A stretch of 64,000 nucleotides of DNA from an uncultured virus (IMG/VR IMGVR_UViG_3300042392_001468) (taxonomy: Duplodnaviria; Heunggongvirae; Uroviricota; Caudoviricetes). Shown one piece after another: positions 12,341 to 48,571 of the stretch. The number at the start of each line of letters is the position of its first letter. Position 1 is the first letter of the stretch. Location of the stretch: the IMG/VR virus record IMGVR_UViG_3300042392_001468; one strand, given 5' to 3'. Both the position numbers and the translations under genes were made by a program. A model generated the notes under the pieces. It saw only the letters and a list, made by a program, of their open reading frames with translations, did not search any database and had not been told where the DNA came from.

Positions 12341-12341
12341 C

Positions 12342-15455: not shown

Positions 15456-15470
15456 TTGGCCCTCCTGTTG

Positions 15471-22300: not shown

Positions 22301-23636
22301 GCACACCCTTGCCCCTGTTGTCAATCTCATCCAAACGGCTGAGTACATCTCCCCCGCTTCGATTGAAGGCAGCGTTGGCTATTTCAAGCCCGCCGAACAG
22401 TGCCGTTACCGCTGCTCCAGTTTTGGCAAAACTCTTGACCTTGCTTAGCAATCCACCAGCGGCAGCAGCGGCACCAGCGGCACCAGCGGCACCAGCCCCC
22501 CCCGCAGCACCACCAGCCAATCCACCAGCCGCGCCAGTGGCGGCAGCCCCGCCGAAGATAGTGCCAAAGACTTTGCCCGCCGCAGCTATCGCAGCGACTC
22601 CACCGAATGACCGCAGCACAAAGGCTGTCAGGGCCACCTTCCCGAGCAGGCCGGTTTCCATAAAGGCTTTCCCGATGCCTTTGGCCAGCGCCACTCCGAT
22701 CTCGCCCGCGCCTTGCGCTATCTGCGGGGCAAGGTCGGTCACGAGTTTCACAACGTCCTGCTGAAGTTTCTGGAACTCACCACGGAGCCTGGTCAGTTTC
22801 TGTGCCCGTGTCAGCTCGCCTGAGTTGATGATCTTGACAAACTCACCGAACTTGTCGAGCGCGGCAGTAATGGCAGGCGTGGCATGTTTAGCAAACGCAA
22901 TCTGGAGCCCCATGCCAGCGACCTCCGCCCGTCGCTGTGCGTTGGTGAAGTCGCTCATTGCGTCTACGGTGTCGCCGCCCATCGTCGCGCCGAACTCATC
23001 AGCCCACCGCAGCTGCTCCTGAAGTCCGGCTGCGCCCTTTGAGAACATCGGAAGAATGGTCTGATAGCCCCGTCCGAGAATCTTGGAAGCTGCGGCCTGC
23101 CTGGTGGATGAACCTTCAGCCTTGCCGAGCGCGTCAGCGACCAGCAGAATCTGCTTCGAGAAGTTGCCGCCGGTCTTTGTCAGGTCGGCCTGCGTGATGC
23201 CAAGCGCAGCAAAGGGCTTCAGGGAAGATTCGGTGCCGGCCTTCGCACCCTCAACGGCTTTGGAAAGTGAAGTGAAGCCCATCGTCAGGGCTTTGGAGTC
23301 AACGCCCCTGGCTCTCGTTACGGCAGCCCAGCGTGAAGCCTCCTTCGTAGCCATGCCAAGGTTCCGCTCCAGCCCCATCGTCGCCAGGGCCAGCTCCTGC
23401 GTTGTGACGATTGCCTGTTTTGCCTGTGCCACAGACAAGTATGCGGCCACCGCACCTCCAGCAGCGGCAGCCGCACCTAAAAACGATGACCGCAGACGAT
23501 CAGTTGCCCTAGATCCGACACCAGCGGACTTCGACAACCCGCCAGTCTCTTTCGTGACACGACGCATTCCGGCGCTAACGCCAGATGTGTCCATGCCCAT
23601 AATGATCTCAAGAGCGCGTGAGCGTCTTGCCGCCAT
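19341..23636 (-). CDS. tape measure protein with peptidase-like and lytic transglycosylase domains
   Basis: 1431 aa, Ala/Gly-rich helical; YH...ARDF...HFDHVH; AESGGN...DYGLWQIN...W. Confidence 0.92.
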   Translation of the reverse strand: MAARRSRALEIIMGMDTSGVSAGMRRVTKETGGLSKSAGVGSRATDRLRSSFLGAAAAAGGAVAAYLSVAQAKQAIVTTQELALATMGLERNLGMATKEASRWAAVTRARGVDSKALTMGFTSLSKAVEGAKAGTESSLKPFAALGITQADLTKTGGNFSKQILLVADALGKAEGSSTRQAAASKILGRGYQTILPMFSKGAAGLQEQLRWADEFGATMGGDTVDAMSDFTNAQRRAEVAGMGLQIAFAKHATPAITAALDKFGEFVKIINSGELTRAQKLTRLRGEFQKLQQDVVKLVTDLAPQIAQGAGEIGVALAKGIGKAFMETGLLGKVALTAFVLRSFGGVAAIAAAGKVFGTIFGGAAATGAAGGLAGGAAGGAGAAGAAGAAAAAGGLLSKVKSFAKTGAAVTALFGGLEIANAAFNRSGGDVLSRLDEIDNRGKGVLGTMSRALGGGDGGPLEFLNQGGLSQQGDIAHDLKDTLNEIGTANRERYQVLKGQANSLAEQLDLTRKQRNEIQNIIGASRVGRQNQQAASIQSGMETISSGQLIGPDLRAVVDRQLQSISQTYNRYTPQWRSAVEGTLNAQIQATRDAYSKGGKLTREGIKRIQDIIARRQKLMASGDPVGIARGIANGWTKARSVNQVNIRGFIQRLNKMTPAARQTAGASMLAYARELDAKGKLPDGTLQKLRSKFIRRFGPDMWRKIQQGAASGLSGVDKTAKDTGNKFDEMASSAVKAHNRIKRSASSVPGPVRTAYQSLANSANTAADAFGSNQKVSLSFRRGGELSQPGSKRLVPAAVSPGELISYKSREMYVPGRPEPRDSVLMYLPIGAKVFTSDGQRRLASGASETEALRRQAPHFGGGGMVGNLPSPKLSGGARVPTATGQAAIDRGKSQAQKWIERLKPSLQGMEKLAAKFGLDTTSGYRAGDDGYHGVNRARDFSNSDGPTAEMFKFANYVGTNFGQHLLELIYTPLGWAIKNGARTAPYAEADHFDHVHVALRNGGKVTSKSPMKNRKQWGPNQLHTLASAVGMSNPGLMTQIAQAESGGNAKLNNAGLNSDGSVDYGLWQINSIHGKPVSGMLNPIQNALYAKEILNREGIGAWSAYNNGRYSGFSGGRFDKEFYWDLIYSDEAQDKAKGGARRKVRRANAVGKRFKENGGKPGTRGKVKAAIKAAKQSLRLARAGNVGGAGRAGRKATGLTKQAGAGIGQAAPDNAPANAPTRPSASSFKGLPGFKNLPESIKKLLTMPGLSMEDKVAIYERAATIAEGTAGSADDDAVRSGQLALQTGIRNNALKTARRTSNFLKNYSAEERARDRATVKNKNASKAARKAARARLNRLGSSPETRTNALTTAASAESEIATLKGGSEASVDLATAMKELAEAIKEQNQLQSSVQATSSREALRMLSDVISGQIVGKRTSVTQPLGVRY

Positions 23637-24117
23637 CAGTCACCTCCAGATAGCTCCTGGCGTATTCCGTCCAGGAGAAGTTCAAGTTCCCACAGCGCAA
23701 GGTTTTCGGCCTCCGCTACGGACAAACCGCAGTAGCGACGCAGCAGGAAATACTCCTGCCGCTCGCTCCTGCTCAGGTAGGGCGTTCTGAACGAAGCGCA
23801 GAGATGCGCTCGAACAGCATCTCAACATGCCCGTAGCCGATTTCGTCGGCCTTGTACTTCTGGCGCACGACGGTCTTGGCGTGAATCTTCTTGCCGTCCT
23901 CGTCACCGATTGGCTCAAGCAGAACGTCCAGCAGCTCAGCCAGTGCCTCGAGCGCCGCGTCCTCGCCTGCCTCATCGTCAAGCGCCTCCAGATTCTTGAA
24001 GGCTTCCTCTACCTTCCGCTCAACCGCCCTGGTGGGCTGGCGTACGGAAAACTTCGGACCCCACAGATCAACCTCAATCGGATCGAACAGATCAGTGGCT
24101 GCGTTCAGTGTTTTCAT
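23636..24117 (-). CDS. tail assembly chaperone, frameshifted long (GT-type) form
   Basis: -1 frame after CGC CCT ACC TGA reads PYLSRSERQEYFLLRRYCGLSVAEAENLALWELELLLDGIRQELSGGD* and ends in a TGATG overlap with the TMP. Confidence 0.7.
23773..24117 (-). CDS. tail assembly chaperone (G-type short form)
   Basis: Acidic 114 aa protein upstream of the TMP. Confidence 0.75.
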   Translation of the reverse strand: MKTLNAATDLFDPIEVDLWGPKFSVRQPTRAVERKVEEAFKNLEALDDEAGEDAALEALAELLDVLLEPIGDEDGKKIHAKTVVRQKYKADEIGYGHVEMLFERISALRSERPT

Positions 24118-24152
24118 TTGTGACTCACTTTCATTCGACAGTTCTCAACAGT

Positions 24153-24195
24153 CGTGCCGAGCCCCCGCCCTGTCGAGACGACGGGGGCCGGCACG
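24153..24195. promoter_or_regulatory. strong GC hairpin between neck-like gene and chaperone
   Basis: CGTGCCG.GCCCCCG ... CGGGGGC.CGGCACG; the T-tract is on the + side only. Confidence 0.5.
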
Positions 24196-24211
24196 TTTTG
24201 GAAATCTCTAG

Positions 24212-24739
24212 TCAGTCGTCAAAGCCGTTGATGCGGGCAAGGTGGTCAACCATGTCCATGAGTTCCTGCTCCATCTCCGGCCTGCGCCTGAGCACAGCCT
24301 TCCCGAGCATCTGAGAGCGCGGGATGGTCATAGGCGGCACGCCGAACTCGGCCCGTGGCCTGATCCGACCGTCCGCCTGGCCCCTTGCGCCCCATTCGTG
24401 CGCGGGTGCGTAGGGAAGATCGGAATACAAAGACATTTGCCTGGCCTTGACAGACAGGCGGATTGAACGCTGAAGAGTCCCAGGCCGGTGCTTCTTGCCT
24501 TTGGACTGGTACGGCTTGCCAATGGGCGTGAGCTTCTTGGCCTCACCCTGCGTTTTCTTTCCGATCTCTCGCAGGTACTTTGTGAGCTCCTTTGCGAGTC
24601 CTTCGTCAATCTTCTTCAGATCGCGCCGGAACTGTGCCAGCCCGACGATCTGGATGGCACGATCACGACTGGCCCCGCCCCCGCTCTTTGGTCGAGCGGG
24701 GGCAGAACCGTCACCCGTGCTGTGCGGGCGATAGGCCAT
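24212..24739 (-). CDS. HK97 gp10-like neck / tail-completion protein
   Basis: I.GL..F.RDL...AK.LTP...G.L.RSI...YA..HEWG. Confidence 0.75.
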   Translation of the reverse strand: MAYRPHSTGDGSAPARPKSGGGASRDRAIQIVGLAQFRRDLKKIDEGLAKELTKYLREIGKKTQGEAKKLTPIGKPYQSKGKKHRPGTLQRSIRLSVKARQMSLYSDLPYAPAHEWGARGQADGRIRPRAEFGVPPMTIPRSQMLGKAVLRRRPEMEQELMDMVDHLARINGFDD

Positions 24740-24741
24740 CG

Positions 24742-25731
24742 CTACAGAGCGGTGTCCGTATTCGTGTTCACGATGGTCATGGGGGCATCCGTGCCGTTCC
24801 ACAGTGCGCGGAACTCAACCTCGGAAGTGATGAGGTCGGGTCCGGCGACAACCGGGCTGGAGCTGATCTGCTTGGCAGCCGGTACTGTGATCTCGGTCTG
24901 GAAGTAGGACGAACCCTCGATGAGGGTGTTCCGTGCGCGGGCGACCAGGGCCACCAGCGACTCGTTCCTGAACCGGGTGTGATCGGCCAGTGAAGCGAAC
25001 TCCAGCGTGGCTGAGATTGCCAGCTCACTCTGAGCGTTCAGCAGCGGCTCATCCTTGACACCGGAGTTGCCCAGGTGGTAGCGGTCGGTGGACATGTTCA
25101 GCGGAACCGTGATGGTCAGCGAGCGAACATTGGCCTGAGCCGATCCACCTACTGTGATCGACCAGTCCTTGAAGCCGTAGGGCTTCGCGGATGCCGAGTA
25201 GGTCGGAGTGCCGAGCGTCTGACTGGTCTGCTCGTCGCGTCCGTCGATACTCAGGTTCAGCGTTGCCGCTTCGCCTGCTTCGATGGAGATGGTGGCTTCA
25301 GTGATCTTCGCGCCGGCGTAGTCGAATGGACGAACGGTGCCGGTGGTGTCGGGCCTGCCTACCTGAAACGAGACTGACTTGCCGACCGGAGAGGTCAGAC
25401 CAATCGGAAACGTCTGTGTGCGGGCGTTCGTCGCGCCGCTGGGTGTGACAGATGTGACAGCCGAGCCGGTGAGCAGGTTGAACAGCTTGCCCATTCCCCG
25501 GTCGTGAAGCAGCATCTCGACTGAGCCTTCAACCGAACGAGTGGAGCTGACGTGGTAGCCAGAAGGCTGAACCATGACTCCGGCCATGAGCGGCTGGTTG
25601 GCGATGTACTCCTGCGTGAGCGCAAGGCTCTCGCTCTCAAACGGCAGGTAGGTGGTGGGTGCCACCCTCGTTCCGTAGGTTGTTTCGTTGCCGATGCCGA
25701 GCTGGGCATCAAGTCCTGATCCGTGCGGCAT
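24742..25731 (-). CDS. major tail tube protein
   Basis: GSGL.AQLGI..ETTYGT...ESL pattern; ends NTDTAL. Confidence 0.85.
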   Translation of the reverse strand: MPHGSGLDAQLGIGNETTYGTRVAPTTYLPFESESLALTQEYIANQPLMAGVMVQPSGYHVSSTRSVEGSVEMLLHDRGMGKLFNLLTGSAVTSVTPSGATNARTQTFPIGLTSPVGKSVSFQVGRPDTTGTVRPFDYAGAKITEATISIEAGEAATLNLSIDGRDEQTSQTLGTPTYSASAKPYGFKDWSITVGGSAQANVRSLTITVPLNMSTDRYHLGNSGVKDEPLLNAQSELAISATLEFASLADHTRFRNESLVALVARARNTLIEGSSYFQTEITVPAAKQISSSPVVAGPDLITSEVEFRALWNGTDAPMTIVNTNTDTAL

Positions 25732-25898
25732 CAGACGTTCTCCTTCTTCTTAGCAGTGGTCTTGACTTCGATCCAGCCCTGCTCAACGAGCTTGGCTCCG
25801 ATCTCAGCCGGAACTTCGACAGCCTCGCCGCAGTCAGCCTTGATGCCGACTTCAGCGATTAGCAACGAGTCCGGCCCTTCTTCGTAGCGAACCTTCAC
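25731..25898 (-). CDS. small virion-associated protein (55 aa, not in the ORF track)
   Basis: GTG after AAAGGAG; MKVRYEEGP...GEAVEVPAEIG.KL.EQGW; TGATG overlap with the tail tube gene. Confidence 0.65.
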   Translation of the reverse strand: MKVRYEEGPDSLLIAEVGIKADCGEAVEVPAEIGAKLVEQGWIEVKTTAKKKENV

Positions 25899-25912
25899 GG
25901 TCGCTCCTTTCG

Positions 25913-26332
25913 TTAGATACGGGCCGTGCCCGTGAGCGTTGTCCTTATTCGACAGCCCTGGCCTTTGTCTGTCTGGAAAAACTCCCGCGTGCCTTTAGTC
26001 AGGCGGGCATCCCATGAGACTCCATCCAGGTGATGATCGCCGCGAACAGCAGCGTCAACGATTGCGAAGATTTCCCAGCACCTCGCGGCAGCTGGTTTCA
26101 TGTCCCTCCCAGATGGCGTGATCGCCTCCACGATCAGCTCTATCTGGAATGACTCTTCAAGCGGAACCTCCTGCGGTCCAAGCAGCCGAAAGCTCCGCTC
26201 AAAGTCTGCGCCGAAGATCGCCACGAGCTCCTTGGCCTCGGTGTAGCCGTAGACCACTTTGGTCGGCTCGTCCTCTAGCGCCTCAATCAGCACTTCCTCC
26301 AGATGGTTCTCGATTGTGGGGACTGCGCTCAT
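25913..26332 (-). CDS. tail terminator-like protein
   Basis: Position and size; ends ARI. Confidence 0.65.
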   Translation of the reverse strand: MSAVPTIENHLEEVLIEALEDEPTKVVYGYTEAKELVAIFGADFERSFRLLGPQEVPLEESFQIELIVEAITPSGRDMKPAAARCWEIFAIVDAAVRGDHHLDGVSWDARLTKGTREFFQTDKGQGCRIRTTLTGTARI

Positions 26333-26901
26333 ACGACTGGCGTGGCGTAGGCGTAGTCACTGACGATCTGGTTGACCTCGGGAATCGGGAAGATTGCGCC
26401 CCTGACTCCTGGCGTGACAAGCGACCATGCGGCCATCTCGGTTGTCTTGGAAGTGGCCCGCTCGTCAAAGTCAGTCGGGTCAATGGTCAGGTAGTGGCGG
26501 GTCAGCAGCAGCACCGCTCGCTTGATCGGCAGCGGTGTAACTTCCCAGCCGTGGCGATAGAGCACTGAATGCTTGCCATCGTCAAGCGGAATCAGGCCGT
26601 CTGGGTATGGGCCTTCGTTGACTTCCTCGTTGTCAACTTCGAGCACCTGGAGCACCCGTGGCATCTCCAGCAGAGCTATGTCATTTCGACCGAAGGCGAT
26701 TTCCTGCCGCTCGCGCTCAGTGAAGGCGACACCGCAGGCATCTTCCAGCCGAGCGGTGGCGGTGTCACGTGCGCTTTCAATCACTGGCTCGTCAAGATCC
26801 GTGAGCCCAATGTCAGCAATGAATGCTTCGACCTCTTCGACCGTGACCAGCGCCGCCTCGGTGAACTCGTTGTCCGGCTCGGAAATGATGATGTGACTCA
26901 T
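26329..26901 (-). CDS. head-tail adaptor protein
   Basis: VTVEEV...LE..CG.AF...Y.HG...P..IKRA.L...IPEV. Confidence 0.8.
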   Translation of the reverse strand: MSHIIISEPDNEFTEAALVTVEEVEAFIADIGLTDLDEPVIESARDTATARLEDACGVAFTERERQEIAFGRNDIALLEMPRVLQVLEVDNEEVNEGPYPDGLIPLDDGKHSVLYRHGWEVTPLPIKRAVLLLTRHYLTIDPTDFDERATSKTTEMAAWSLVTPGVRGAIFPIPEVNQIVSDYAYATPVV

Positions 26902-27245
26902 CAGACTTCCTCTGCGTCAAGCGAAGGTTCAATGACAATGGAGAGGTAGCCCGTGTTAGGGATGGTCTGATTCTGCCCAGCTCCCCAGTCAATGTCAGCC
27001 TCAGCGTTGTAGGTGCCGGGAAAGGCCGTATCGCCCGTTGCCGGGGTCCACGATATCCAGCCTTCTTCTGCGTCGTCAATCTCGCAGGGGTCAGTGGCAA
27101 TCCGCACTGAGTTGTCTGACTTGACCAGGTGAAGGATGACCTCCTCAGCCTCGGTCAGATCCACCGGCACAAGCGGTGAGCCCTGCCGCAGCTGAATGCG
27201 AAGAGGTGGAAATGTGTCGTTTTGTTTGAGCGTGTAATCAGCCAA
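26901..27245 (-). CDS. BppU-N-like Ig-fold virion protein
   Basis: KQNDT.P.L...VDLT...G...W...DT...G.Y.AE...T.P..GY. Confidence 0.7.
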   Translation of the reverse strand: MADYTLKQNDTFPPLRIQLRQGSPLVPVDLTEAEEVILHLVKSDNSVRIATDPCEIDDAEEGWISWTPATGDTAFPGTYNAEADIDWGAGQNQTIPNTGYLSIVIEPSLDAEEV

Positions 27246-27522
27246 GAATCAGAGCCTCCGATGTTCGGCTGTCAATATCCGAACGGGTAGAGATGGAAGT
27301 GACAAGACTTTGCGAAGCGTCGGCCTGCGGCAGCGCGTCCGAATCGCCGGAAGCCGGCTGGGTCTGTGAGAGCAGCGCGGCCATTGCCGCAAGCATGTCG
27401 TCAGCCTGCGGGATTCCTCTGGATGCGTCGGGTGTAAATACTGCCGTCGTGGGAGTACGGGGCAGCGGCATCCCTGGGTACAGCTGGGAGCTTGGATAGA
27501 GCCGGATTTCTGGGAAGAGCAT
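27238..27522 (-). CDS. small virion-associated protein with YP/LYP repeats
   Basis: AGGAGG RBS; LFP..LYPS..LYP. Confidence 0.6.
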   Translation of the reverse strand: MLFPEIRLYPSSQLYPGMPLPRTPTTAVFTPDASRGIPQADDMLAAMAALLSQTQPASGDSDALPQADASQSLVTSISTRSDIDSRTSEALILG

Positions 27523-27532
27523 GTGGCCTCCT

Positions 27533-27606
27533 AAGTTCTTGCGAAGGTCGCCCTGCTGCTAGCGGCAGTGATTCTTGCCCGGTAGTGCTGGAAGGTGAAA
27601 GCGCAT
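27533..27606 (-). pseudogene. degenerate 5' remnant of a GT4 paralog
   Basis: MRFHLPALPG identical to the 28870 start; 20-nt identity 27578-27597 / 28842-28861; frameshifted continuation ITAASSRATF resembles ITKANSTCAF. Confidence 0.75.
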
Positions 27607-27839
27607 CAGCCCTTGATTGCCTGAACGTGAACATTGCCCGATACGGCTTTCCAGTCTGAGTCCGTGCCTACTTGCGTCGGTGTGTAAATGTCGGGCGTGG
27701 TTGCCCTGCTTGTGCTGTCTGTCAAGTTCGGGATGGACACGGTTGCGTCCGGCCTTGCGCCTGAGCGGGGTCGGTCTGGCAGGTTCGGGAAGATGTTGGC
27801 TCCGGGGAACAGCCCTGGGCGTGGGTAGCGGTCGCTCAT
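27606..27839 (-). CDS. small protein with YP/FP repeats
   Basis: TGATG coupling at both ends; YP.PGLFPG..IFP. Confidence 0.6.
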   Translation of the reverse strand: MSDRYPRPGLFPGANIFPNLPDRPRSGARPDATVSIPNLTDSTSRATTPDIYTPTQVGTDSDWKAVSGNVHVQAIKG

Positions 27840-28870
27840 CAGAAGCCCTGCGGTACATGGTCGGAGTGCCAGCCGTCACCGCCAAGCGTGGTAAGGCGGT
27901 CGAAGTAAGTCTCGTACTGCGGGGCAACGGCGTCGTAGCTGTAGCGGTCAATGGCAGATTGCCTGAGCTGGTCGCCGTTGAGCTCCGGTGCCCGTCGTAC
28001 TGCTTCGCAGAACTCCCCCAGGGTGTGACAACGGAAGCCGGTTACGTTGTGCTGGACGGTTTCGGTGAAGGCTCCCCAGTCCGTCGTGATCGGTGGGGTG
28101 CCTGCGAGCTGGGCCTCGACCGCTACGAAGCCGAATGGCTCAATGTAGGTGGTGGGCATCAGCACTGCCTCTGCCTGTGACATAAGCCGCGCCCGTTCTT
28201 CAGGTCCGACTACGCCTATGGCTTCACCGTATGTGGGCTGATGCGGTCCCGCGCCGGCGAGGATGAGCCGCTTGCCAAGCTTCTGCGCCACGGACTCAGC
28301 GATTCCTACGCCCTTGCGCTCTTCCAGCCTGCCGATGTAGAGCAGGTAGTCCTCTTTGCCTTCGTGCCTGGGGTGTTCGTCCGGGTCGAAGTAGGCCGGG
28401 ATCACGGCGTGGTAAAAGCTGCCATCTGCGCTGTTAGTGCCGCGCTGTTGTCCGTAGGTGGTGTGTTGCCACGCTACGGACTCGAAGATTCGGAACGGTG
28501 CGAAGCTCCCACCGTAGCCAATGCCGAACTCTACGGGGTACATGAAGGGCAATGAGGCCATCAAACTCTCTTGGCATATGCCTCCGATAAGCCCGAGAAT
28601 ATCGCCCGGCTCTGCTCTTTCTGCGATTGCTGCGGCTGCGCTCCGGTTGTATTCTTCCCAAGCCTCCGGGCTAAAGGCCGGGGGTGCTGTCTCTGGGTAG
28701 CAAGCCACATGATCGCCAAGCGAATCGTGCTGCGGATCGCCGTAGACATTTACCTCATGGCCCCGTGGCACCATCATGTCAGCGAACTTCCTCACCTTCT
28801 GCGTGAAGGCGCAAGTCGAGTTAGCCTTTGTGATTGGCTGCCCCGGTAGTGCTGGAAGGTGGAATCTCAT
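27839..28870 (-). CDS. glycosyltransferase family 4 (GT-B)
   Basis: YIGRL..RKG...EPFG.V.VEA...GTP.IT.D.G...E.V.H..TG. Confidence 0.93.
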   Translation of the reverse strand: MRFHLPALPGQPITKANSTCAFTQKVRKFADMMVPRGHEVNVYGDPQHDSLGDHVACYPETAPPAFSPEAWEEYNRSAAAAIAERAEPGDILGLIGGICQESLMASLPFMYPVEFGIGYGGSFAPFRIFESVAWQHTTYGQQRGTNSADGSFYHAVIPAYFDPDEHPRHEGKEDYLLYIGRLEERKGVGIAESVAQKLGKRLILAGAGPHQPTYGEAIGVVGPEERARLMSQAEAVLMPTTYIEPFGFVAVEAQLAGTPPITTDWGAFTETVQHNVTGFRCHTLGEFCEAVRRAPELNGDQLRQSAIDRYSYDAVAPQYETYFDRLTTLGGDGWHSDHVPQGF

Positions 28871-28900
28871 GATTGGATGATCCTTTACGAGGTTCCGAAC

Positions 28901-31408
28901 CTAGATGACGATGCTCTTCTGGAACCTACGCCGGAATGTCTGCGTAGCTGTAGTGTTCTGGCCGTGACAAGTTATTTGAATTGTCGGAGTGCCTGTCAAG
29001 TCATTTGTTGTCAAAGCATAAATCGCTCCTGATGTAGTCGTGGCGATAGCCTGTCTCGCATTTGCGGCAGTAGGAGCGTAGCGATTGATACTCATCTGCA
29101 AATAGGCGCTGCCTGAAGAATGAGTGACAATGGCGGCAGATATTTCCACAATCGAAAAGTTTGTGGCTGAGTTTGTGAGAGTCGCGCCATCGGTGTGGGT
29201 CAGGTAAGTGACTCCATCAACTACGAGGGTGAATACATAAGTCCTTGCGGCCCCAGAGTTGTTTATCAGGTATCCCTTTACTTCTGTTTCGATTGCCTTC
29301 CCTGAAGCTAAAGCAGTATTCGGTATAAAAGTGGCAATCGTCTGGGCGGAAGTAGAGTTTACCGATATCGAAGTATCTGAGAGGTTGGTCGCATCTACAA
29401 TAGGACCAGTTGCTCCCGTTGCTCCGGTGCTACCTGCCGGGCCGCTTGGTCCCGATGGACCGCTAGGACCAGAAGGACCGCCGCCTGCCGCTACCCATTC
29501 AAGATTCCAGTCATCGGCATCAACCTTTGCCAGAACCTCGCCTGTGCTGCCGCCCGGAGGAACGGGGAAGGCAATAAAGGATATGCCCGAATCAACCCAA
29601 TCAGTACCGTCATAGGTCCAAATATCAAAGAGTGGTGAGCCGTCAATCTCGATGTAGTAATCACCGGATGAGCCGGGATCAGTCGGGGGTCCGTAGTCAA
29701 AGGTAAGTGTGCCGCTGCCCCCCGCAGGACCGGATGGGCCGCTGGGTCCGGTGGCTCCTGCCGTACCCGGTGTTCCGCTTGCTCCCGCCGCTCCGGTAGC
29801 CCCGGTTACTCCTGTCGGTCCCGTTGCGCCTGTAAGTCCTGTGGGTCCGCTCGGTCCCGTGGCTCCTGCGATGCCCGCTGGTCCCGATGGTCCGCTTGGA
29901 CCCGCTGCGCCAGTCACACCAGTTGGTCCTGTAGCTCCGGCTGGTCCGGTTGCGCCTGTAACTCCTGTGGGTCCGGTGGCACCATCTGCGCCTGCTGCCC
30001 CGGTTACGCCAGATGGTCCTGTCGCCCCGGTAAGTCCTGTGGGTCCGCTAGGGCCGGTTGCGCCGGTTGTGCCTGCGGCTCCGCTTGGCCCGGTTGCTCC
30101 CGTTGCTCCGGTGCTACCTGCCGGGCCGCTTGGTCCCGATGGACCGCTAGGGCCAGAAGCACCGCCGCCTGCCGCCACCCATTCAAGATTCCAGTCAGAG
30201 GCATCAACCTTTGCCAGAACTTCGCCTGTGCTGCCGCCTGCCGGGACAGGGTAGGTCAAAAGGCTAACGCCGCTTGCGGTCCAATCCGTACCGTCGTAAG
30301 CCCATATTTCCCAGATTACGGGTGTGCTATCTAGCTCTACATAAACTGAGCCGCTGCTGGGTGAATAGGTCGGCGTTCCGTTGCCGAACACAATGTCTCC
30401 CGCTTCACCTTCGGGTCCAGAAGGACCGGATGGGCCGGAGGGTCCGGTAGCTCCGGTTACTCCAGAAGGCCCGGTGGCTCCTGTGGCTCCTGCCGTACCC
30501 GGTGTTCCGCTTGCTCCTGGTGTCCCGCTCGCCCCCGTTGCTCCGGTTACTCCGGTTGGCCCGGTCGGGCCGGGAACCGTTGAGGCAGCGCCGCTTGGCC
30601 CGGTGGCTCCTGCGGGACCGCTCGGCCCCGTTGGTCCTGGCACGGTTGAAGCCGCACCAGTAGGGCCAGTTGCGCCTGCGGGTCCGGTTGATCCGACATT
30701 TCCAGAGGGCAAAAAGTCCACTGAAAGAAAGCCCGGCGAAACACCAGGAATGTCACCTGAGATGTAGTCAACGCCGATTTTGTAGTAGCCCGTTGCTGCG
30801 GTAACGCTTGTAACCGCCAGAACCATTGTTGCTGAGCTTGTAGCGGTTTGGATAAGAAGGTTGCCCTTTATTGCGCTGGTTGAATCATCCCAGGTGTCAT
30901 ACCATGCGGTTTGACTAGTGGTATTGAGGTCTTGGTTGTCAATGAATACCTGAGTCACCGAAGCAGCCGTTGAGTTATTGAGCTTTAGGTTGCCTGCGCC
31001 GGGGTCAGAATCAGCCGTTGTGCTGTTGAAGGTGTACCTAAGCCCACCGCGAGCGCCAGAAGGACCGGATGAACCGCTCGGGCCGGTGGCTCCTGCGGGT
31101 CCAGAAGGCCCGGTGGGACCAGAAGGCCCGGTGGCTCCGGTGGCTCCGGTAGGTCCGGTTACGCCAGTGGCTCCTGCTAAACCGCTAGGGCCAATAATTC
31201 CGCTGGGGCCGGTCGCTCCAGTGACTCCTGTTGGGCCGGTGGGACCAGCAAGCCCGCCGTATGGAAGTGAGTTCCAAGCAGTTGCACCGTCACCAACCTT
31301 GAACTTGTCAGTGTCGGTTTCTAGCGCCATTTCACGCTCTGCCAAAATAGGGTTATTGGCAATCCAATTGGCTGCCGTGTCGCCTCTAAGTTGGATTCGT
31401 ACCGCCAT
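28901..31408 (-). CDS. collagen-like fibre protein with Mtd-N/hyaluronidase-N-like anchor
   Basis: IQLR.DTAANW...NP.LA..E...ETDT..K.GDG.TAW..L.Y; long G-X-T/S repeats; globular C-terminus. Confidence 0.88.
29409..30238 (+). repeat. 146-bp direct repeat pair (29409-29554 and 30093-30238) inside the collagen gene
   Basis: About 6 mismatches by eye. Confidence 0.85.
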
Positions 31409-31647
31409 CAGCCAATTCCTCCGTTGATACCACCGTCAAACAAAATAGAGGTTGAAGTGCCTCCGTCTACATTGACAAAACTTGCTCCGGTGGCTCCGGT
31501 GGCTCCGGTGGCTCCTGCGGGTCCGCTTGGCCCCGTAGCACCAGTAGCTCCGGTTGGCCCGCCAGCCGGTCCAGTGGGACCAGGTGCCCCGATAAGCACC
31601 TTTTCCCACGCGCTCGTAACGGGATTGTATTGCTTTATAACCGTCAT
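31408..31647 (-). CDS. short collagen-like protein
   Basis: GPT/GAT repeats; VDGG...DGG tail; coupled at both ends. Confidence 0.75.
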
Positions 31648-32390
31648 GTGAGTTTGACCGCTTTTTGCGTTTTGCGCGTGAAGGTCTGAGTGGCTGTTGT
31701 ATTTTGACCGTGACAATAAAGTGCCAACGATCCTCCATCCGTAAAATCGTTTGCCGTGTTATTCCAAATCTGACCGCTGGCAGTAGTTGTCATATCTTGG
31801 CGAGTGTTAGCAGTAGACGGACTTGAGCGATTTAGGGTCATTTGAATGTGACTATCAAATTGATCGTAGACGGCTACAACAATTTTTACATCTACAACCG
31901 AGGATGTAGCCGAGTTTGTAAGAGCGGCACCTTCTGTGTAAGTCAAATAAGTTGTGCCATCAAATTGAACTGTCCAAACATAGGTTCTACTCGCACCTGA
32001 ATCATTCTTAAGCAAACCTCGCACATCAAGTTCAAACATTGTGTTGGCTGCTAGGTTCGAAGTTGGGGCAGCAAGTGCGACTAACACAGGCGTTGTTGAG
32101 TTCACATTGTAAGAAGTGCTTGTAACTAGGGCATCGTCAAAACCTGCGCCCGTTGGACCGGAGGGACCGGATGGACCGGATGGGCCTATACCAACATCCC
32201 CTGCCTCTGTGGTGTCAGCCCAAAGGCTATCTGTATCGTCTGGAGGCGTGTCGGAAATGATAATGCCCGGATCGCCCTCTGGCCCGGTAGGTCCGGTTGG
32301 CCCGGTAACGGCAACCTCAACTTTTTTGTCTAAGTATTCAAAGTTGAGCGTCGAAGCCCGGTCTGGGACTGTTCGATGCGGTAACTCCAT
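31644..32390 (-). CDS. collagen-like fibre protein; C-terminal domain paralogous to 28901-31408
   Basis: Shared N.SGA.RTYV.T...DG.TYLT.T.GA.LTNSAT and [13 protein letters not shown]. Confidence 0.8.
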   Translation of the reverse strand: MELPHRTVPDRASTLNFEYLDKKVEVAVTGPTGPTGPEGDPGIIISDTPPDDTDSLWADTTEAGDVGIGPSGPSGPSGPTGAGFDDALVTSTSYNVNSTTPVLVALAAPTSNLAANTMFELDVRGLLKNDSGASRTYVWTVQFDGTTYLTYTEGAALTNSATSSVVDVKIVVAVYDQFDSHIQMTLNRSSPSTANTRQDMTTTASGQIWNNTANDFTDGGSLALYCHGQNTTATQTFTRKTQKAVKLT

Positions 32391-32998
32391 TAGGTAGCCG
32401 CAATACCAAAGACATATACATTGCCTACAAACGATGAGGTTACAACCGTAGCTGACAAAGTAATTGTGGTTGTAGATGTTACGACAACCATAGCTACTTG
32501 AACTCCTGCCGCATACTTATCGCCAGCCTCGCCAGTCAATCGTTCAAGATTTGTAAAAGCCGATGTTGGCTGCGTAACTGTGGCTGCCCCCCCAGAACTA
32601 CCAATAGAAAAACTGTGTGCTTGTCCGTTCGTGGTTCCTTGCCCTATGACAAGGTAGGTGCCTGGGGGTACATTTGAAACGCTTCCCGAAACTTGAGGGC
32701 TGCCACTAGATGTGATTACCGTTCCGCGATTTGACTCAAAAACAAACTTGACACTTCCGCTAAGCACAGAAAGGGCTGCCATTTTTGCGGCAGTTACCGC
32801 TCCGTCAGCAATTTTGCCCGTAGGAACAGAAGTATTTGCTAATTTCGATCCAACGATTCCTGCGTTATCGGCAATGTTTGCGTTATCCAAACCGCCGTTT
32901 ATCGCGTCACGGATTGTGCCAATCGCAGAAGCAATCTTGGGATCTTCTGTGTCGTTTGGCTTTCCTACGACTGGAACTTGCGGGTCAATTGTTGCCAT
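32390..32998 (-). CDS. tail fibre/spike-like protein
   Basis: NG.LD..NI...KIADGAVTAAK fibre repeats. Confidence 0.7.
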   Translation of the reverse strand: MATIDPQVPVVGKPNDTEDPKIASAIGTIRDAINGGLDNANIADNAGIVGSKLANTSVPTGKIADGAVTAAKMAALSVLSGSVKFVFESNRGTVITSSGSPQVSGSVSNVPPGTYLVIGQGTTNGQAHSFSIGSSGGAATVTQPTSAFTNLERLTGEAGDKYAAGVQVAMVVVTSTTTITLSATVVTSSFVGNVYVFGIAAT

Positions 32999-33011
32999 TG
33001 TCTAATCCTAC

Positions 33012-34790
33012 CTAGTCTGATCGTGGTCGCAGGAAACCCGCTATTGAGTAGATTTCCATTGTGTTTGCGTTTATTTCTTCGTCGTAAATGCGAAGCGACC
33101 AGGCTCGGCCCCAGCCATCAGTCGGGGTGTAGTAACGCTTTTGAGTAATAGTCGGCGTGGCTCCAAAGGTGCCCTCGTCGCCAAAGTCTGTGCCAGAGTC
33201 GCCAAAATCGCCGCCAGTTGAAGCGCCAGATTCCCAAGGTATCCAGTCTAGGCGTTGGCGGGTGTCGCCAAAAGTGGTGCCTGCGTCTAGTTCCCAATAA
33301 CCCACGCCATCAATGCGGTACTGGCTGATTCGTTTGTTCAACTGTGGAGCGCCCCAAGTCCAGTACGGACCTTCCCAATACGACTGATACGGCAAGGCGT
33401 TGTCTGTGTAGACATTTTTGACAAGCATTTGATCCATGCCCGCGATCTGGGGAACCGCACCGTACAGCTTAGCGCCGCTGCCCAAGTCAAGTATTGCGTA
33501 GTCGGCTGCGGCTAGTGAATGAATCCACCACGCCCCGGTATCAAGTTGGTATTGAAGCGTGACCGTGTTTTTGTTGTCAGCGTATGGGATTGACAACCAA
33601 TACGAGTCCTGAAAATAAACACCTACTGACCGTTTGTAAGCGATTGGTTGAGTTTCCGAAATGGTGGCAAGCAGCGGCTTGATCTTGTCCGATACCACGC
33701 GAATGTTGCTGCCGTCAGTAATACATACGCCCAAGTCCTCTGAAAGAAACAAGGTACCCTGGGTTGTCTCCACAATAGAGCGATGTGAAGAACATCCAAT
33801 GCTCGAGGACAAAGTGCGGTAAATCCCAGAAGCGCCGTCTGAAATGACATAGGACTTGCGTTCTTTGAATACAATTACATACGGGCCTACTGTGCCAAGC
33901 CCGGTTGTTACTTGCCCATCATCCGGGTCTATATCGTCAATGAGGTCGGTATCCCAATTACAGGGGTCAGGTAGCGGTGTGGAATCGTCGTTGATTCCTG
34001 TTTTCCAAATGCGGCCCGGATAATCGGGGTCGCCGGTAGCCCACATGCGATCTTGAGCGTAGATCAAATAGGGAGTGCCATCGGGCACTTCACCCTGTGA
34101 CGCATCGGCTTCCCAATCCTCCGTAGTCGCAGAAACCCCGTCCCAATACTGCGGGGTGTTTACGCCGTTCATGCCGTAATACGGTCCTTGGTCTGGGCTT
34201 TCGTCTGTAGCAAGTGGTCCCTGTACCCATTCCCACGGTTTGTTAGCGGCTTGATTGCTTTTCAGCGTTGTAGTGGTGCCGCCCGTAGTAATCTTGACTA
34301 TCGAATCCGTTGCGGCCCCGGGGCTGACCGGGCCAACCCCGATGAATCCTTGAAAGGCTCCTGTCGTAGCGAACAGGGTGTGGGCACTCAGGATCGCGCC
34401 GTCAAGTGCCGTAACCATTGCCCCGTCGTTATGCGCCGCTGCGGTCGTACTCAGGGATGCCCGGGTACAGCCCGCAAAGGTGGTTGAGGTCTTGCTTGCG
34501 TATTGAATCTTCTCGTTGTCAATCAGTATGTAGCCGGAGGCCGCTGCGCCGGTAGTGCTAGTGACTGTGATCGTGGTAACAGCGGCGTTGATCGCGCCGT
34601 TGAGGGTAGTGTTGATATTCCCGTATGTTCCGGTGCGGGTACTACCGTTGCGCTTGTTTAGAGCGCCTGTGCGGTTCGCGTATACATTGCGGCAATCCTG
34701 GCATTGGTTGTCCTCGAGCAAATATGGCCCGGCTTCAAGATTGAGTCCACCTGAGAAATCGGTGTATAGGACCGGGTTGCCGGTAGCCAT
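33012..34790 (-). CDS. podovirus tail nozzle (tube B / stabilization-like) protein
   Basis: DFSGGLN...N......G.L.KR.G N-terminus; beta-propeller-like body (IGC...SI). Confidence 0.78.
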   Translation of the reverse strand: MATGNPVLYTDFSGGLNLEAGPYLLEDNQCQDCRNVYANRTGALNKRNGSTRTGTYGNINTTLNGAINAAVTTITVTSTTGAAASGYILIDNEKIQYASKTSTTFAGCTRASLSTTAAAHNDGAMVTALDGAILSAHTLFATTGAFQGFIGVGPVSPGAATDSIVKITTGGTTTTLKSNQAANKPWEWVQGPLATDESPDQGPYYGMNGVNTPQYWDGVSATTEDWEADASQGEVPDGTPYLIYAQDRMWATGDPDYPGRIWKTGINDDSTPLPDPCNWDTDLIDDIDPDDGQVTTGLGTVGPYVIVFKERKSYVISDGASGIYRTLSSSIGCSSHRSIVETTQGTLFLSEDLGVCITDGSNIRVVSDKIKPLLATISETQPIAYKRSVGVYFQDSYWLSIPYADNKNTVTLQYQLDTGAWWIHSLAAADYAILDLGSGAKLYGAVPQIAGMDQMLVKNVYTDNALPYQSYWEGPYWTWGAPQLNKRISQYRIDGVGYWELDAGTTFGDTRQRLDWIPWESGASTGGDFGDSGTDFGDEGTFGATPTITQKRYYTPTDGWGRAWSLRIYDEEINANTMEIYSIAGFLRPRSD

Positions 34791-35441
34791 CTAAAGCACC
34801 CAGGAAGTCGGAGCCAGTGGGTCAATACGATTGTCGCCTACCCTTTTGGCTTGCGTGTAATCATCAGAGTCGTATTGAACCTCGCCACGGCACTTCATAA
34901 TGTCCTCGTCAAAGCGGCCCTTGTGGTACATGGCTGAGTTGTAGTCGTTCTCGCGCTCGTAGCAATGCCAGAGGGCGTAGGAAACGAGCAGGTGGTGATA
35001 GGTGCCCGGGATCTGGGGAGTGTCGCCCGCATTGGCAAGCGTGGCTGGCTTGGCGTAGTAACGAAGCCTGAGTGTGTAAACAGTGTCCGGCGTGGGCCAA
35101 AGGTTGATTTCGTCATTGGTGATCGCATAGTGGGTAGGTATTCCACTACTAAACGGCAGCGCGTCTAGGTCGCCTTGGGAAACTTCTTGAAGCGGGTAGG
35201 AATCCGTTGCCGTGCGGGTATACATGAGAGAGTAAACCCGCATGAAATTCTCGGGCAAATCGTAGGCAGCATCGTTGTTGGCCGTAATGATCTCCTGAGA
35301 GGAAAACAGTTCGCGGAAATCAGTCTGAGCGGCAACATACGCCTGCCCCTGGTTGAGCCGCGCCTGCACATAGTTTGTGTATTGCACAGGGGAGAACTGG
35401 TGGCTCAGTACCTCGTCTGTAAGTTCGGAAAAAGTTGGCAC
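34791..35441 (-). CDS. podovirus tail adaptor (tube A-like) protein
   Basis: YDLP..F...G.P..Y......LWPTPD..Y...Y...P..L...D.P.IP..YH..LV.YA. Confidence 0.82.
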   Translation of the reverse strand: MPTFSELTDEVLSHQFSPVQYTNYVQARLNQGQAYVAAQTDFRELFSSQEIITANNDAAYDLPENFMRVYSLMYTRTATDSYPLQEVSQGDLDALPFSSGIPTHYAITNDEINLWPTPDTVYTLRLRYYAKPATLANAGDTPQIPGTYHHLLVSYALWHCYERENDYNSAMYHKGRFDEDIMKCRGEVQYDSDDYTQAKRVGDNRIDPLAPTSWVL

Positions 35442-35453
35442 TCCCCTATGGTA

Positions 35454-36173
35454 CTAGGCAGCCTTGGAGATTACCGACGCGGCAGGTTCGTCTGGCACCA
35501 TGCGTTCCAGGGTATCCGCCATTTCGGGGATGCGGTTCTTGTACGGCTTGGAGTCTTTCCACATCGAGTAAACTTTATCGTCCTTGCGGTCCATATGGCC
35601 GCAAAGGATTGAGCCGTTACAAAACACCTTGCCGCCTGCCTCATACAGCTTGCGGAAAAAATGAAGATCCTCGCCTTCCTTCTCGCTGTTCATGCCGTCC
35701 GAGGACTCTACGAAAGCGAAGTAAGGTTCCTCGATCTTGTCAAAGGCTGATACGCGGATTACACAGCATCCCAGCCCGGCTCCCCAAACAGGGAAGGTTT
35801 CACCCATTTTCCAATCCCAATAAGGCCCGGAAACATCTTCTGGCTTGCCTCCAAAAATCAGCGGCTCGGGCGGGATGGTTTTCGTACAGTAAACCCCCGT
35901 AATCGCGTCCCAATCGTCATTTTGCTCCATTTGATAGAGCATCAGTTTCATGGCGCTGTCAGGAATCAACACATCATCGTCAATGAAAACGAGGTATTTA
36001 CAGTCGCGCTCTTTGGCGGCAATGGCACAGTTGTTGCGGGCTGTGGCAATCGGCACCTTGATTGGGACAATCGTGTTGCGCTCCCCCGATACCGGCCATT
36101 GAAGTTGTGAATACATGATGGCCCATGCGATATGAACCGGGCCGTTTGAGGGAATTGCTACAGCGTATTTCAC
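35454..36173 (-). CDS. glycosyltransferase family 2 (GT-A)
   Basis: ARN...FIDDD...G.GC..I....F...GED..F...GH. Confidence 0.9.
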   Translation of the reverse strand: MKYAVAIPSNGPVHIAWAIMYSQLQWPVSGERNTIVPIKVPIATARNNCAIAAKERDCKYLVFIDDDVLIPDSAMKLMLYQMEQNDDWDAITGVYCTKTIPPEPLIFGGKPEDVSGPYWDWKMGETFPVWGAGLGCCVIRVSAFDKIEEPYFAFVESSDGMNSEKEGEDLHFFRKLYEAGGKVFCNGSILCGHMDRKDDKVYSMWKDSKPYKNRIPEMADTLERMVPDEPAASVISKAA

Positions 36174-36646
36174 TCAGAGTCTTTCTTGTCGGGAATGTCC
36201 TTGCTGATTACAGCCGTGTCCTGGTTGTAGCCAAGATCCCTACGAATAGCAAAAGCCAGTTTTTCTGCGTTTTCACCGATCTTTTGCGAAAACTCCCAAT
36301 CGCGGGCTGCTTCTGCCAACTCATGCTGTTTTTCCAGTTCGTCAGCGTAGGAGTAGTCGGGCTGCTGATTGAGCCAGTTGATCCGCTCGAGGTCGCGCAC
36401 AATGCGTCCGTCAAGTTCCTGATAGGTAGCAACCATGTAGCCGCTGCCCGCTTCTTGATTGTGTTCGCGGGCGTAAACGACATAGTATTGCCCGACTTCT
36501 GAGTACCGCAGGTGAAGCCGCTCGTCAATCTCTTGAAGGCGCTGTGCGATTCCCCCCGCATCCTGGGTGATTAGGTGCATCTTCCCGTCACGGCCAGACT
36601 TGATTTGTTCAATCGAAGCCGGTTCTATTTCACCAGTCCACTCCAT
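36170..36646 (-). CDS. hypothetical structural-module protein
   Basis: ORF between capsid and GT2, coupled by GTGA. Confidence 0.7.
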   Translation of the reverse strand: MEWTGEIEPASIEQIKSGRDGKMHLITQDAGGIAQRLQEIDERLHLRYSEVGQYYVVYAREHNQEAGSGYMVATYQELDGRIVRDLERINWLNQQPDYSYADELEKQHELAEAARDWEFSQKIGENAEKLAFAIRRDLGYNQDTAVISKDIPDKKDSE

Positions 36647-36682
36647 TACGACTGCCAGCCTACCACATCGTTCTGTCAAACG

Positions 36683-36717
36683 AAAACGAGGGGCCGGGCT
36701 AAATACCCGACCCCTCG
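36683..36717 (-). terminator. intrinsic terminator after the major capsid gene
   Basis: CGAGGGGTCGGG-TATTTAG-CCCGGCCCCTCG followed by TTTTCGTTT. Confidence 0.85.
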
Positions 36718-36739
36718 CTGTTCGTCGTGGTGCCTGTGA

Positions 36740-38011
36740 CTAGGCAGTTACGCTCGGAGCATCGTCCGTGGCGAACTGCAACTTGCCGAGGCGGTTCGGC
36801 GCTACAGCACCAAGGGTGGCGTACCACCCGAGGTATGCCTGCCAGGTTGCCTCATGCGTACCGGCAACCGAACCGTTCTTGAGTTGGAACACAGTACCAT
36901 CCTGGGGGCTTTCGAGGAAGCCCGGACCCCACTGTTGGAACCAACGAAGCGCCGACTTGTCAATGGCGAACACATTACCCTTGGGGCAATCATCGTCAAT
37001 GACAACCGGAACCTCACCGCTGCCAGAAGCGACCATGATCGCGGAGTAACCTCCGTGGATCTGGACGGCCTGGTTGTTGGTGAACCGCTTGGTGGATTGG
37101 AAAGTGTCAGCAAGCCTGCGACGGATGCCGCGACTCGTAACAAACACTTCCGTATCACCTTGGCCGGTCTGACCAACATCGTCTGAGATAAGCTCAAACG
37201 AGGTTTCGCCAGCGGTGGCCGGTGAAGCGGCCTGAGTACCGACATTACGAACCTGGGAGTTCCAGAACTCGTTTCCGGCGGTGCCTGAGTTGATTGAGTG
37301 GAGCGTCCTGCTGGTAGCGACAATGCTCTGCATTCCCTGCATCTCCTGGCCGTATGAACCGGCGAGGTAGATACCGAATGTAGTAGCAATGGTGCCACCA
37401 ACCGCTGCCGAGAAGGTAACGGTCTTGTTGGCTGCGTCCAGAGCAGTAACGAGATTTCCCGAACCGCCCGCCAGAGTGCTTGCGTCGGTGCGCCTAAGCA
37501 CATCAACGGGGTCGCCCACATGGAGGTACTGGATCGAATCAACCGTGACAGGTCCGACCGTAGTAGAAGCCGTAGCCGCGACAGAAGCAAGCAGACCATC
37601 TCCGGTTCCCCAGATTTGACGGTTTACATCCTTCTTCATGTCCTTGGTCGCACCCTTGACTTCGGCATCAAGCAGGTTCACAAAGGCTCCGGTGTTGGAA
37701 CTTGTGGCTCTGATTGAAGCGTCGGTCAGTTCAATGGACTGGTAGTGACGGGTGATCGGAATGATCGCGTCCTCCCAGACTTGAGTGCCAGCAACCGGCA
37801 GAACTCCGCCGTCACCCCTGGAACCACGACCCCTGTTTCGGGCCTTGTGAACCGGGACGATTGCCCGCCGACCGTGATGGTCTACGGTGAACTCCGTCTG
37901 CCGTTCGATTTGGTCAATCATGTAGGACTTGTGGTTGAGTTGTTCAACGACAGGTCCGACATACAGATCCTTGAGGATCGCGTCTGCGTTTGTCAGTGTT
38001 TGAGTAGCCAT
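36740..38011 (-). CDS. major capsid protein
   Basis: ILKDLY.GP..EQLN...NRQ.WG.G.G...D.DCP pattern; follows scaffold; followed by a terminator. Confidence 0.9.
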   Translation of the reverse strand: MATQTLTNADAILKDLYVGPVVEQLNHKSYMIDQIERQTEFTVDHHGRRAIVPVHKARNRGRGSRGDGGVLPVAGTQVWEDAIIPITRHYQSIELTDASIRATSSNTGAFVNLLDAEVKGATKDMKKDVNRQIWGTGDGLLASVAATASTTVGPVTVDSIQYLHVGDPVDVLRRTDASTLAGGSGNLVTALDAANKTVTFSAAVGGTIATTFGIYLAGSYGQEMQGMQSIVATSRTLHSINSGTAGNEFWNSQVRNVGTQAASPATAGETSFELISDDVGQTGQGDTEVFVTSRGIRRRLADTFQSTKRFTNNQAVQIHGGYSAIMVASGSGEVPVVIDDDCPKGNVFAIDKSALRWFQQWGPGFLESPQDGTVFQLKNGSVAGTHEATWQAYLGWYATLGAVAPNRLGKLQFATDDAPSVTA

Positions 38012-38023
38012 GCTTGGAATCTC

Positions 38024-38866: not shown

Positions 38867-38986
38867 TTACTTCCTTTCGACTGTGGTTTGCCCACGCACG
38901 GCTGTACCTGCTGCCGCAGGTCTTGGCCGAAACTGTGTGCGTACTCTTGGTCACAATAGACACAGAGTACCTGAATGAATGGAAGT

Positions 38987-48569: not shown

Positions 48570-48571
48570 GA

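Follow-up and report, generated by a model that had tools for sequence, protein, structure and literature searches.

A 64-kb stretch of viral DNA that probably mis-joins two lake-water phages at a shared collagen-fibre and glycosyltransferase segment

The distal modules of tail fibres are exchanged among unrelated phages, a form of classical mosaicism known, for example, from work on the fibres of P2, Mu, lambda and the T-even phages. Glycosylated collagen-like surface fibres are exemplified by BclA, which ends in a TNF/C1q-like C-terminal knob (PDB 1wck), and mycobacteriophages encode glycosyltransferases (GTs) with or near their structural genes, which have been proposed to modify virion proteins. 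For freshwater actinophages infecting the low-GC 'Ca. Nanopelagicales', one report describes glycosyltransferases and a variable island with a tail-fibre gene and collagen-like proteins, which its authors interpret as recombination-driven variation in host recognition (PMC10202952). Here we analyze a 64,000-nucleotide stretch of DNA from an uncultured virus (IMG/VR record IMGVR_UViG_3300042392_001468; hereafter the window), in which the genes of a podovirus virion run through collagen-like fibre genes and a GT4 glycosyltransferase gene into the tail genes of a siphovirus. A first, sequence-only reading had favored a mis-join of two phages through shared collagen repeats. The window is very probably a concatenation of two separate lake-water phage genomes, with the join being a repeat-induced mis-assembly; the sequence that the two share is indeed the place of the join, but it is an exact 1.6-kb repeat (segment S) made of the 3′ half of a fibre gene and the 5′ third of the GT gene, not low-complexity repeats.

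Segment S resembles classical fibre-tip exchange in combining a phage-specific N-terminal anchor with a shared, presumably receptor-binding distal part, with borders in homologous or repetitive sequence. It departs from it in that the exchanged tract includes the 5′ part of the neighboring GT gene, in its ~100% identity over 1.6 kb, and in that in two siphoviruses here the gene lies between capsid and connector genes, outside the tail-fibre cluster. With BclA, the fibre shares Gly-X-Thr/Ser-rich repeats followed by a compact C-terminal domain (all-beta by prediction here) and a GT encoded nearby, but the match to 1wck is mostly to the collagen repeat, and glycosylation here is putative. The mycobacteriophage GTs are likened by gene context alone, being encoded near structural genes, whereas the proposed target here is a collagen-like fibre. 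The actinophages of PMC10202952, compared here by description, are likewise lake phages with collagen-like proteins, GTs and extensive inferred recombination. As an assembly product, the window is like other repeat-induced chimeric contigs in its exact repeat (probably longer than the reads or inserts), doubled coverage, branches at both borders and separately recovered parents, and unlike them in that the repeat is an exchanged structural gene cassette rather than a transposon, rRNA or low-complexity element.

Two parental genomes around a shared segment

The gene map was built from the open reading frame (ORF) listing with Pfam and PHROG scans. The minus-strand run from podovirus virion genes through the collagen and GT genes to siphovirus tail genes, noticed in the sequence-only reading, is present, and the minus-strand ORFs are continuous across the join. 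Positions 1–28484 form the right arm of a temperate HK97-like siphovirus and 30102–64000 most of a probable podovirus. The parts of the window that meet at the join are listed below with their evidence, which includes the independent contigs (L001, L081, L082 and L154) described thereafter.

1–28484, minus strand: siphovirus-specific arm (Pfam, PHROG, matches to L001 and L154)
27839–28870, minus strand: GT4 glycosyltransferase of 343 amino acids (aa), present in the window as the siphovirus allele (Pfam Glycos_transf_1, phrog_3408)
28485–30101, minus strand: segment S, 1,617 bp (window aligned with both L001 and L081/L082)
28901–31408, minus strand: ORF C, 835-aa collagen-like fibre (translation; Pfam Collagen, Mtd_N)
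31408–31647, minus strand: ORF B, 79-aa collagen-repeat protein of the podovirus (three-frame translation)
31644–32390, minus strand: ORF A, 248-aa podovirus fibre with short collagen runs (translation, BLASTP)
30102–64000, minus strand: podovirus-specific part (Pfam, PHROG, match to L081)

The siphovirus is represented by a 25.7-kb contig (IMGVR_UViG_3300042519_001270, L001), which was found by scanning IMG/VR with the GT protein. It aligns to window 17842–30109 at 99.97% identity and shows no relation beyond; positions 17842–30069 agree exactly, and the first difference is a single-nucleotide polymorphism (SNP) at 30070. Past the shared stretch, L001 encodes TerS, TerL, portal (Phage_portal, 293 bits), S78 protease (Peptidase_S78, 126 bits), HK97-fold capsid (Phage_capsid, 244 bits) and a 458-aa collagen protein, and it has no podovirus genes. 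The siphovirus therefore has the HK97-like temperate set, with TerL, portal, S78 protease and capsid in L001 and tube, tape measure protein (TMP) and integrase in the window. Siphovirus head genes, which the sequence-only reading had proposed to look for left of base 1, were found there in the independent contig L154: its match to window 1–6430 is 100%, and beyond base 1 it goes on to TerS, TerL and portal genes. Because L154 runs from the HNH gene into TerS/TerL/portal, the siphovirus map closes too, at ~36 kb. The TerS/TerL/portal arms of the two contigs (L154:6366–9100 and L001:1–2773) are just 80% identical to each other, while their remaining parts match the window (100% and 99.97%, respectively); the siphovirus population is thus mosaic as well.

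The podovirus is represented by L081, a 38.3-kb contig, and L082, both found by querying IMG/VR with the first 433 aa of ORF C. Both are 100% identical to window 28485–41408. In the 13.5-kb alignment of L081, all of the ~150 mismatches lie within 27893–28484; both contigs carry their own GT 3′ part, ~57–92% identical per 100 bp, which is followed downstream in L081 by two ORFs (295 and 346 aa) and the beginning of a giant ORF. L081 also contains 6.36 kb that are not in the window, after which its positions 19880–21917 match window 64000–61963 at 100%. Because L081 joins both ends, the podovirus map closes at ~42.5 kb (36.1 + 6.36 kb) with no siphovirus DNA. The window thus covers the right-hand ~30 kb of the ~36-kb siphovirus (1–30069) and 35.5 kb of the podovirus (28485–64000).

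Segment S consists of GT codons 1–128, a 30-bp spacer and approximately residues 436–835 of ORF C. Between L001 and L081 there are no differences in 28485–30069, one SNP at 30070, and identity again on to 30101. The view that both phages share the fibre-glycosylation module is borne out. Wherever the two phages differ, the window has the siphovirus allele as far as 28484, and at 30070 it has that of the podovirus. Because it is exactly siphovirus to 30069 and exactly podovirus from 28485, the switch can lie anywhere in 1,585 bases. All three IMG/VR contigs with a 40-mer of S have it in a parental arrangement, a count that may leave out the window's own record, and an exact 40-mer of S had no match among metagenome contigs.

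Sequencing depth and competing explanations

Of the words sampled from window 25300–33300, 24 lake-water runs contain half or more. The share is at least 0.95 in three of them and 0.52–0.67 in 19, the latter being roughly what a single phage would give; X8 and X17 alone of these 19 were mapped, and the shares of X3–X7, X9–X16 and X18–X24 are a loose indication only. Depth over window 22000–38000 was taken from the Logan short-read contigs of four runs, of which X1 and X2 may be the source runs.

X1, possible source run: depth 15.5 left of S, 32–37 in S, 17.2 right of S
X2, possible source run: depth 26.5 left of S, about 51 in S, 26.8 right of S
X8, podovirus alone: depth 0–0.7 left of 27874, about 13 in S, 13.8 right of S
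X17, siphovirus alone: depth about 7 left of S, about 6 in S, 0–1.2 right of 30010

In X1 and X2 the depth of S equals that of the left arm plus that of the right arm, and contigs end at 28396/28485 and at 30101/30122. A coverage step or a graph branch at the repeat had been named in advance as the observation that would speak against a true hybrid, and both are seen in these two runs. In X8 the contig departs from the window at 28311 into unlike sequence. A contig exiting S at 30101 is found in X1 (depth 19), X2 (30.1) and X17 (5.7), and its extra letters plus loose end are those of L001, encoding the N-terminus of the siphovirus collagen protein. The siphovirus's own junction is therefore present at full siphovirus depth in X1 and X2, and the siphovirus arm is not orphaned there. 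Because S was found in X8 and X17 alike, each phage carries it on its own: S is truly carried, in identical form, by each phage with the other phage absent.

The preference for a mis-join expressed in the sequence-only reading thus holds, given that the parents continue differently beyond S, that depth doubles and contigs branch, and that each phage occurs alone elsewhere. Two self-closing maps with one exact 1.6-kb repeat would produce a figure-of-eight assembly graph. With near-equal coverage of the two there would be no coverage cue, and a path could enter S from the podovirus and exit into the siphovirus. The two maps would add up to ~78 kb (~35.7 kb + 42.5 kb), with ~14 kb outside the window: a second S, a 5.7-kb siphovirus head arm and, from the podovirus, the 6.36-kb stretch and its own GT 3′ part. 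Most likely, then, the join itself is not a biological feature.

Several points weigh against this interpretation. Short-read contigs cannot separate two genomes from a cointegrate containing S twice; arm depths are near equal (15.5 versus 17.2 in X1, 26.5 versus 26.8 in X2), as a cointegrate predicts; X1 and X2 are possibly not independent of one another; and of the contig itself the analysis covers the sequence of the window alone. The near-equal arm depth could equally well be explained as the cause of the assembler's mis-join. A real cointegrate would have arisen from circular podovirus DNA and siphovirus DNA by a single crossover at S in a co-infected or lysogenic cell, giving a ~78-kb molecule with S at both joints, of which the window would be 64 kb. 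Apart from the ~1:1 arm depths in X1 and X2, it would be in keeping with the four arm-to-S junctions, all apparently present in these runs (a pattern that fits two separate genomes equally), with exact identity over 1.6 kb, an efficient substrate for homologous recombination, and with the GT mosaic described below, which shows natural recombination within the cassette. We nevertheless consider a cointegrate unlikely, and the less likely source of the 1:1 depth in the possible source runs, since each phage is found without the other (X8 and X17; L001, L081 and L082), the S-containing IMG/VR contigs are parental in three of three cases, ~78 kb would exceed the expected packaging of the head of a ~36-kb or ~42.5-kb phage, and equal coverage is the very condition under which assemblers mis-join.

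It is extremely improbable that the window depicts a viable hybrid, in which the head, packaging and fibre genes of the podovirus would be fused at S to the connector, tail, lysis and lysogeny genes of the siphovirus as a two-tail or tail-swapped phage. The minus-strand ORFs are unbroken across the joint and the GT and fibre ORFs are intact, but a switch within identical sequence would leave the ORFs intact in any case. In X1 and X2 the siphovirus keeps its own junction with S at full depth, a portal and adaptor of P22/SU10 type on an HK97-type connector and tube would be structurally implausible, and the podovirus and siphovirus portions of the window total 64 kb. We give just as little credence to a pair of adjacent prophages in the chromosome of a bacterium. 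The siphovirus does encode a serine integrase; however, the junction falls amid both structural modules, away from attachment sites, the Pfam and PHROG scans show no flanking host genes anywhere in the window, and L154 goes from the HNH gene directly into TerS/TerL while L081 closes the podovirus map. Mis-assembly of two genomes at S remains the preferred explanation.

Collagen-like fibres, the glycosyltransferase and exchange of the cassette

ORF C combines an Mtd_N domain (52 bits) with four Gly-X-Thr/Ser-rich collagen runs, a globular insert of ~80 aa present in two copies and a C-terminal domain of ~156 aa (the knob). Pfam Collagen matches it with 137.8 bits over 6 stretches, and the 458-aa protein of L001 with 77.9 bits. 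The last ~400 residues are common to ORF C and the siphovirus protein, and the N-termini differ, with 58 aa in the siphovirus protein and Mtd_N within 435 aa in podovirus ORF C. ORF C is a genuine podovirus gene. That it might be a chimeric protein was considered and rejected, the same 835-aa ORF being present in L081. Of the two neighboring podovirus ORFs, ORF A has a knob with 46% identity to that of ORF C (BLASTP, 72/156, E 1e-45), and a longer, TTG-started frame of ORF B (31408–31716) matches Pfam Collagen at E 1.2e-4 with 22.2 bits, under the cut-off of 27.2.

An AlphaFold (AF2) model of the knob, made from a 3-sequence alignment, is an all-beta sandwich (pLDDT 81.6). Foldseek found no match to it in the PDB at E ≤ 0.001. 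The top row of VIA-align was a TNF-like lectin (Z 8.1, root-mean-square deviation 3.1, 114 residues), at a level that the tool calls common, and the next rows were many unrelated beta-sandwiches with Z of 7–7.7, so the TNF-like match is borderline. A search of the PDB with the ORF C sequence returned collagens, BclA (1wck, residues 55–188) and the N-terminus of a prophage hyaluronidase (residues 3–84), matches that owe mainly to the repeats. The ESM Atlas search with the knob gave unnamed viral clusters only, one of them with 38% Collagen members. As a working model, a trimeric collagen stalk would present the distal binding knob and the phage-specific N-terminus would dock the fibre on the virion. 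By analogy, the knob probably binds a host surface structure, and the GT probably attaches O-linked glycans to the Gly-X-Thr/Ser repeats, which are rich in Thr/Ser, or to some other virion protein.

The GT matches Glycos_transf_1 with 55.9 bits in the window copy and 56.0 bits in the L081 copy (cut-off 26.4). The siphovirus and podovirus proteins are identical in the N-terminal part (122/122), with identity reaching to about residue 174, and the rest agrees in 171/221 positions (77%). In comparison with L003 (IMGVR_UViG_3300044621_000806), a third and unrelated siphovirus, the siphovirus GT shows the reverse distribution, 86/117 (74%) in the N-terminal part and 213/221 (96%) in the rest. The window GT, that is, the siphovirus allele, is a natural mosaic. 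L003 differs in its TerL, portal, protease, scaffold, capsid and major tail proteins, and its 511-aa collagen protein, encoded between the capsid and connector genes, has a knob 97% identical to the S knob. Because of the GT mosaic and these knob and GT matches, the fibre-tip/GT cassette must have recombined recently among at least three lineages: the siphovirus, the podovirus and the third siphovirus. The borders of exchange lie in the conserved GT core and the Gly-X-Y repeats, and the exchange would most likely proceed by homologous recombination, with one crossover at each of these two borders. In L003:6027–14026 the collagen protein is followed by this GT, then by three ORFs without annotation, by a second GT (phrog_2170) and by a nucleotide-sugar epimerase (phrog_540); this expanded module suggests a small phage-borne glycan pathway.

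The linkage between GT and collagen genes is general. We collected 69 distinct IMG/VR GT loci, leaving out L001 and loci with identical GT DNA, and 42 of them had at least 4.5 kb upstream and could be judged. A collagen run (at least 8 Gly-X-Y on the same strand, no more than 4.5 kb upstream of the GT) was present in 39 of these 42, and just 4 Gly-X-Y runs of this kind were counted in the 290 kb of sequence lying more than 6 kb from the GT. A group of IMG/VR contigs (L041, L044, L061, L063, L064, L067, L069–L071, L073, L075, L077, L078 and L080) has a 46–48% identical GT ~1.07 kb upstream of the portal gene, with a prohead protease gene beyond the portal where the locus reaches that far. Because of this group, the number of distinct sites at which relatives of the GT lie in phage genomes is at least three.

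Whether S is a self-contained, recently mobile 'fibre tip + GT head' cassette for different virion anchors is a question on which we are evenly balanced. On that interpretation, virions of three architectures in one lake community would display the same knob, the two siphovirus anchors would be short N-termini encoded directly after the capsid gene, and the protein may be a head or neck fibre, and the podovirus anchor would be the Mtd_N-type protein in the tail-fibre cluster.

Gene content, composition and significance

The remaining features of the siphovirus arm are given below; they were called from Pfam and PHROG matches.

95–430, minus strand: HNH endonuclease
2435–3202, minus strand: N6/N4 methylase (DNA methylase)
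3271–4698, plus strand: serine integrase with serine recombinase domains
6286–6627, minus strand: replication initiator
7357–8256, minus strand: ParB/DUF4326
9564–10238, minus strand: RecT
11730–12053, minus strand: Hjc resolvase
12737–13912, minus strand: metallophosphoesterase
14215–14919, minus strand: lysozyme (Phage_lysozyme)
15764–19341, minus strand: tail-tip genes
19341–23636, minus strand: tape measure (TMP PHROGs)
24742–25731, minus strand: tail tube (Phage_tube_2, 100 bits)
26329–26901, minus strand: head-tail adaptor

Those of the podovirus part are as follows.

33012–34790, minus strand: virion protein of 592 aa, in the podovirus virion block
34791–35441, minus strand: SU10-type adaptor (Pfam SU10_adaptor, 101.5 bits)
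36740–38011, minus strand: major capsid protein (phrog_14242 major head protein, E 8.5e-65)
39451–41454, minus strand: P22-type portal (Pfam P22_portal, 44.2 bits)
43205–44743, minus strand: TerL (phrog_2)
46427–46497, minus strand: tRNA-Gln, anticodon TTG (ARAGORN)
47.7–52.3 kb, plus strand: early block
52626–53069: RusA resolvase (Pfam/PHROG)
54330–55121: exonuclease (Pfam/PHROG)
58416–59615: phosphoesterase-like gene (Pfam/PHROG)
59836–60393: M15 endolysin (Peptidase_M15; Pfam/PHROG)
60669–64000, minus strand: 3′ part of a giant virion protein with a VanY-like domain (VanY, 28.7 bits), the ORF exceeding the window end

In the podovirus, the match to SU10_MCP has just 26.5 bits and is without any stretch passing alone. 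Among the podovirus ORFs scanned against Pfam and PHROG, many of which are without annotation, none matched a tube or sheath protein. The giant podovirus protein starts ~4.35 kb further upstream in L081 (ORF 15526–21915+) and has ~2,560 aa in total, the N-terminal 2,130 of which had no match in Pfam or PHROG. A weak match to a 'TMP' PHROG (E 6.9e-8) lies over its VanY region, and the protein is probably an ejected internal virion protein. Its gene sits immediately upstream of a holin-like ORF and the M15 endolysin. The plus-strand ORF block in 47000–53000 has a very high AT skew (+0.32 to +0.46) and is nearly without family matches, the exception being ORF 48747–49994, with PHROG matches of the 'DNA polymerase processivity factor' and RusA-like types.

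As for the functions said to be duplicated on the two sides, lysins (Phage_lysozyme and Peptidase_M15) and resolvases (Hjc and RusA) do occur on both. The proposed pair of a phosphoesterase and its partner stands by half: the phosphoesterases are dissimilar in BLASTP, and the partner genes (12342–12740 and 58018–58425, both minus strand; 132 and 135 aa), each directly downstream of a phosphoesterase-like gene, are 64% identical (E 4e-60). Outside S no other pair of genes from the two sides is clearly homologous, the supposed family of the genes at 5480 and 45383 being not significant (E 0.04), and no other DNA similarity was found between the two sides of the window. A common host, also assumed earlier, found no backing: a tail-tube search of genome contigs for a host gave no relative, and the integrase search of genome contigs gave only 24–26% identical matches, in a Dehalococcoidia and a Clostridia metagenome-assembled genome. 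Megablast of window 12000–31000 and 31000–52000 against INPHARED phages gave no match.

The GC content is ~0.60 up to ~30 kb versus 0.51–0.56 in 31–46 kb, with ~0.53–0.55 for the right side overall. AGCT, which had seemed common on the left and scarce on the right, is so far beyond chance, with 173 occurrences in 1–31000 and 26 in 31000–64000. Counted by phage, there are 165 in 1–28484, near expectation, versus 30 in 30102–64000 against ~126 expected, the podovirus values being 0.18–0.30 of expectation. ACGT is absent from 30102–64000 (~71 expected under a Markov model) and occurs 29 times on the left side; in 1–28484, TGCA occurs 2 times (~125 expected) and AATT 5 times (~42 expected). The siphovirus and podovirus strongly avoid different palindromes, and TTAA is scarce in both. 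Within the siphovirus, ACGT is missing from 1–10000 (12 expected), all 29 occurrences lying in 10001–28484, a split that hints at a different history of the early/lysogeny arm. A 4-mer likelihood scan trained on both sides of the window placed the change-point at 28514, and synonymous-codon and 4-mer likelihood scans both put the compositional change at ~28.5 kb, the left border of S, which weakly suggests that S is podovirus-like in composition. Such scans cannot locate the assembler switch, which is undefined anywhere within 28485–30069.

A two-tail hybrid would have been remarkable, and the evidence favors an assembly artefact. If a viral database lists the contig as one genome, inferences on genome size, taxonomy, host and gene sharing would be skewed. 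The cassette common to the phages is real, yet it is an example of known, ordinary phage mosaicism. The near-identical collagen-fibre-tip/GT cassette offers a concrete, testable case of a probable adhesion module exchanged across morphotypes, and the association of GT and collagen genes suggests a candidate system for glycosylated phage fibres.

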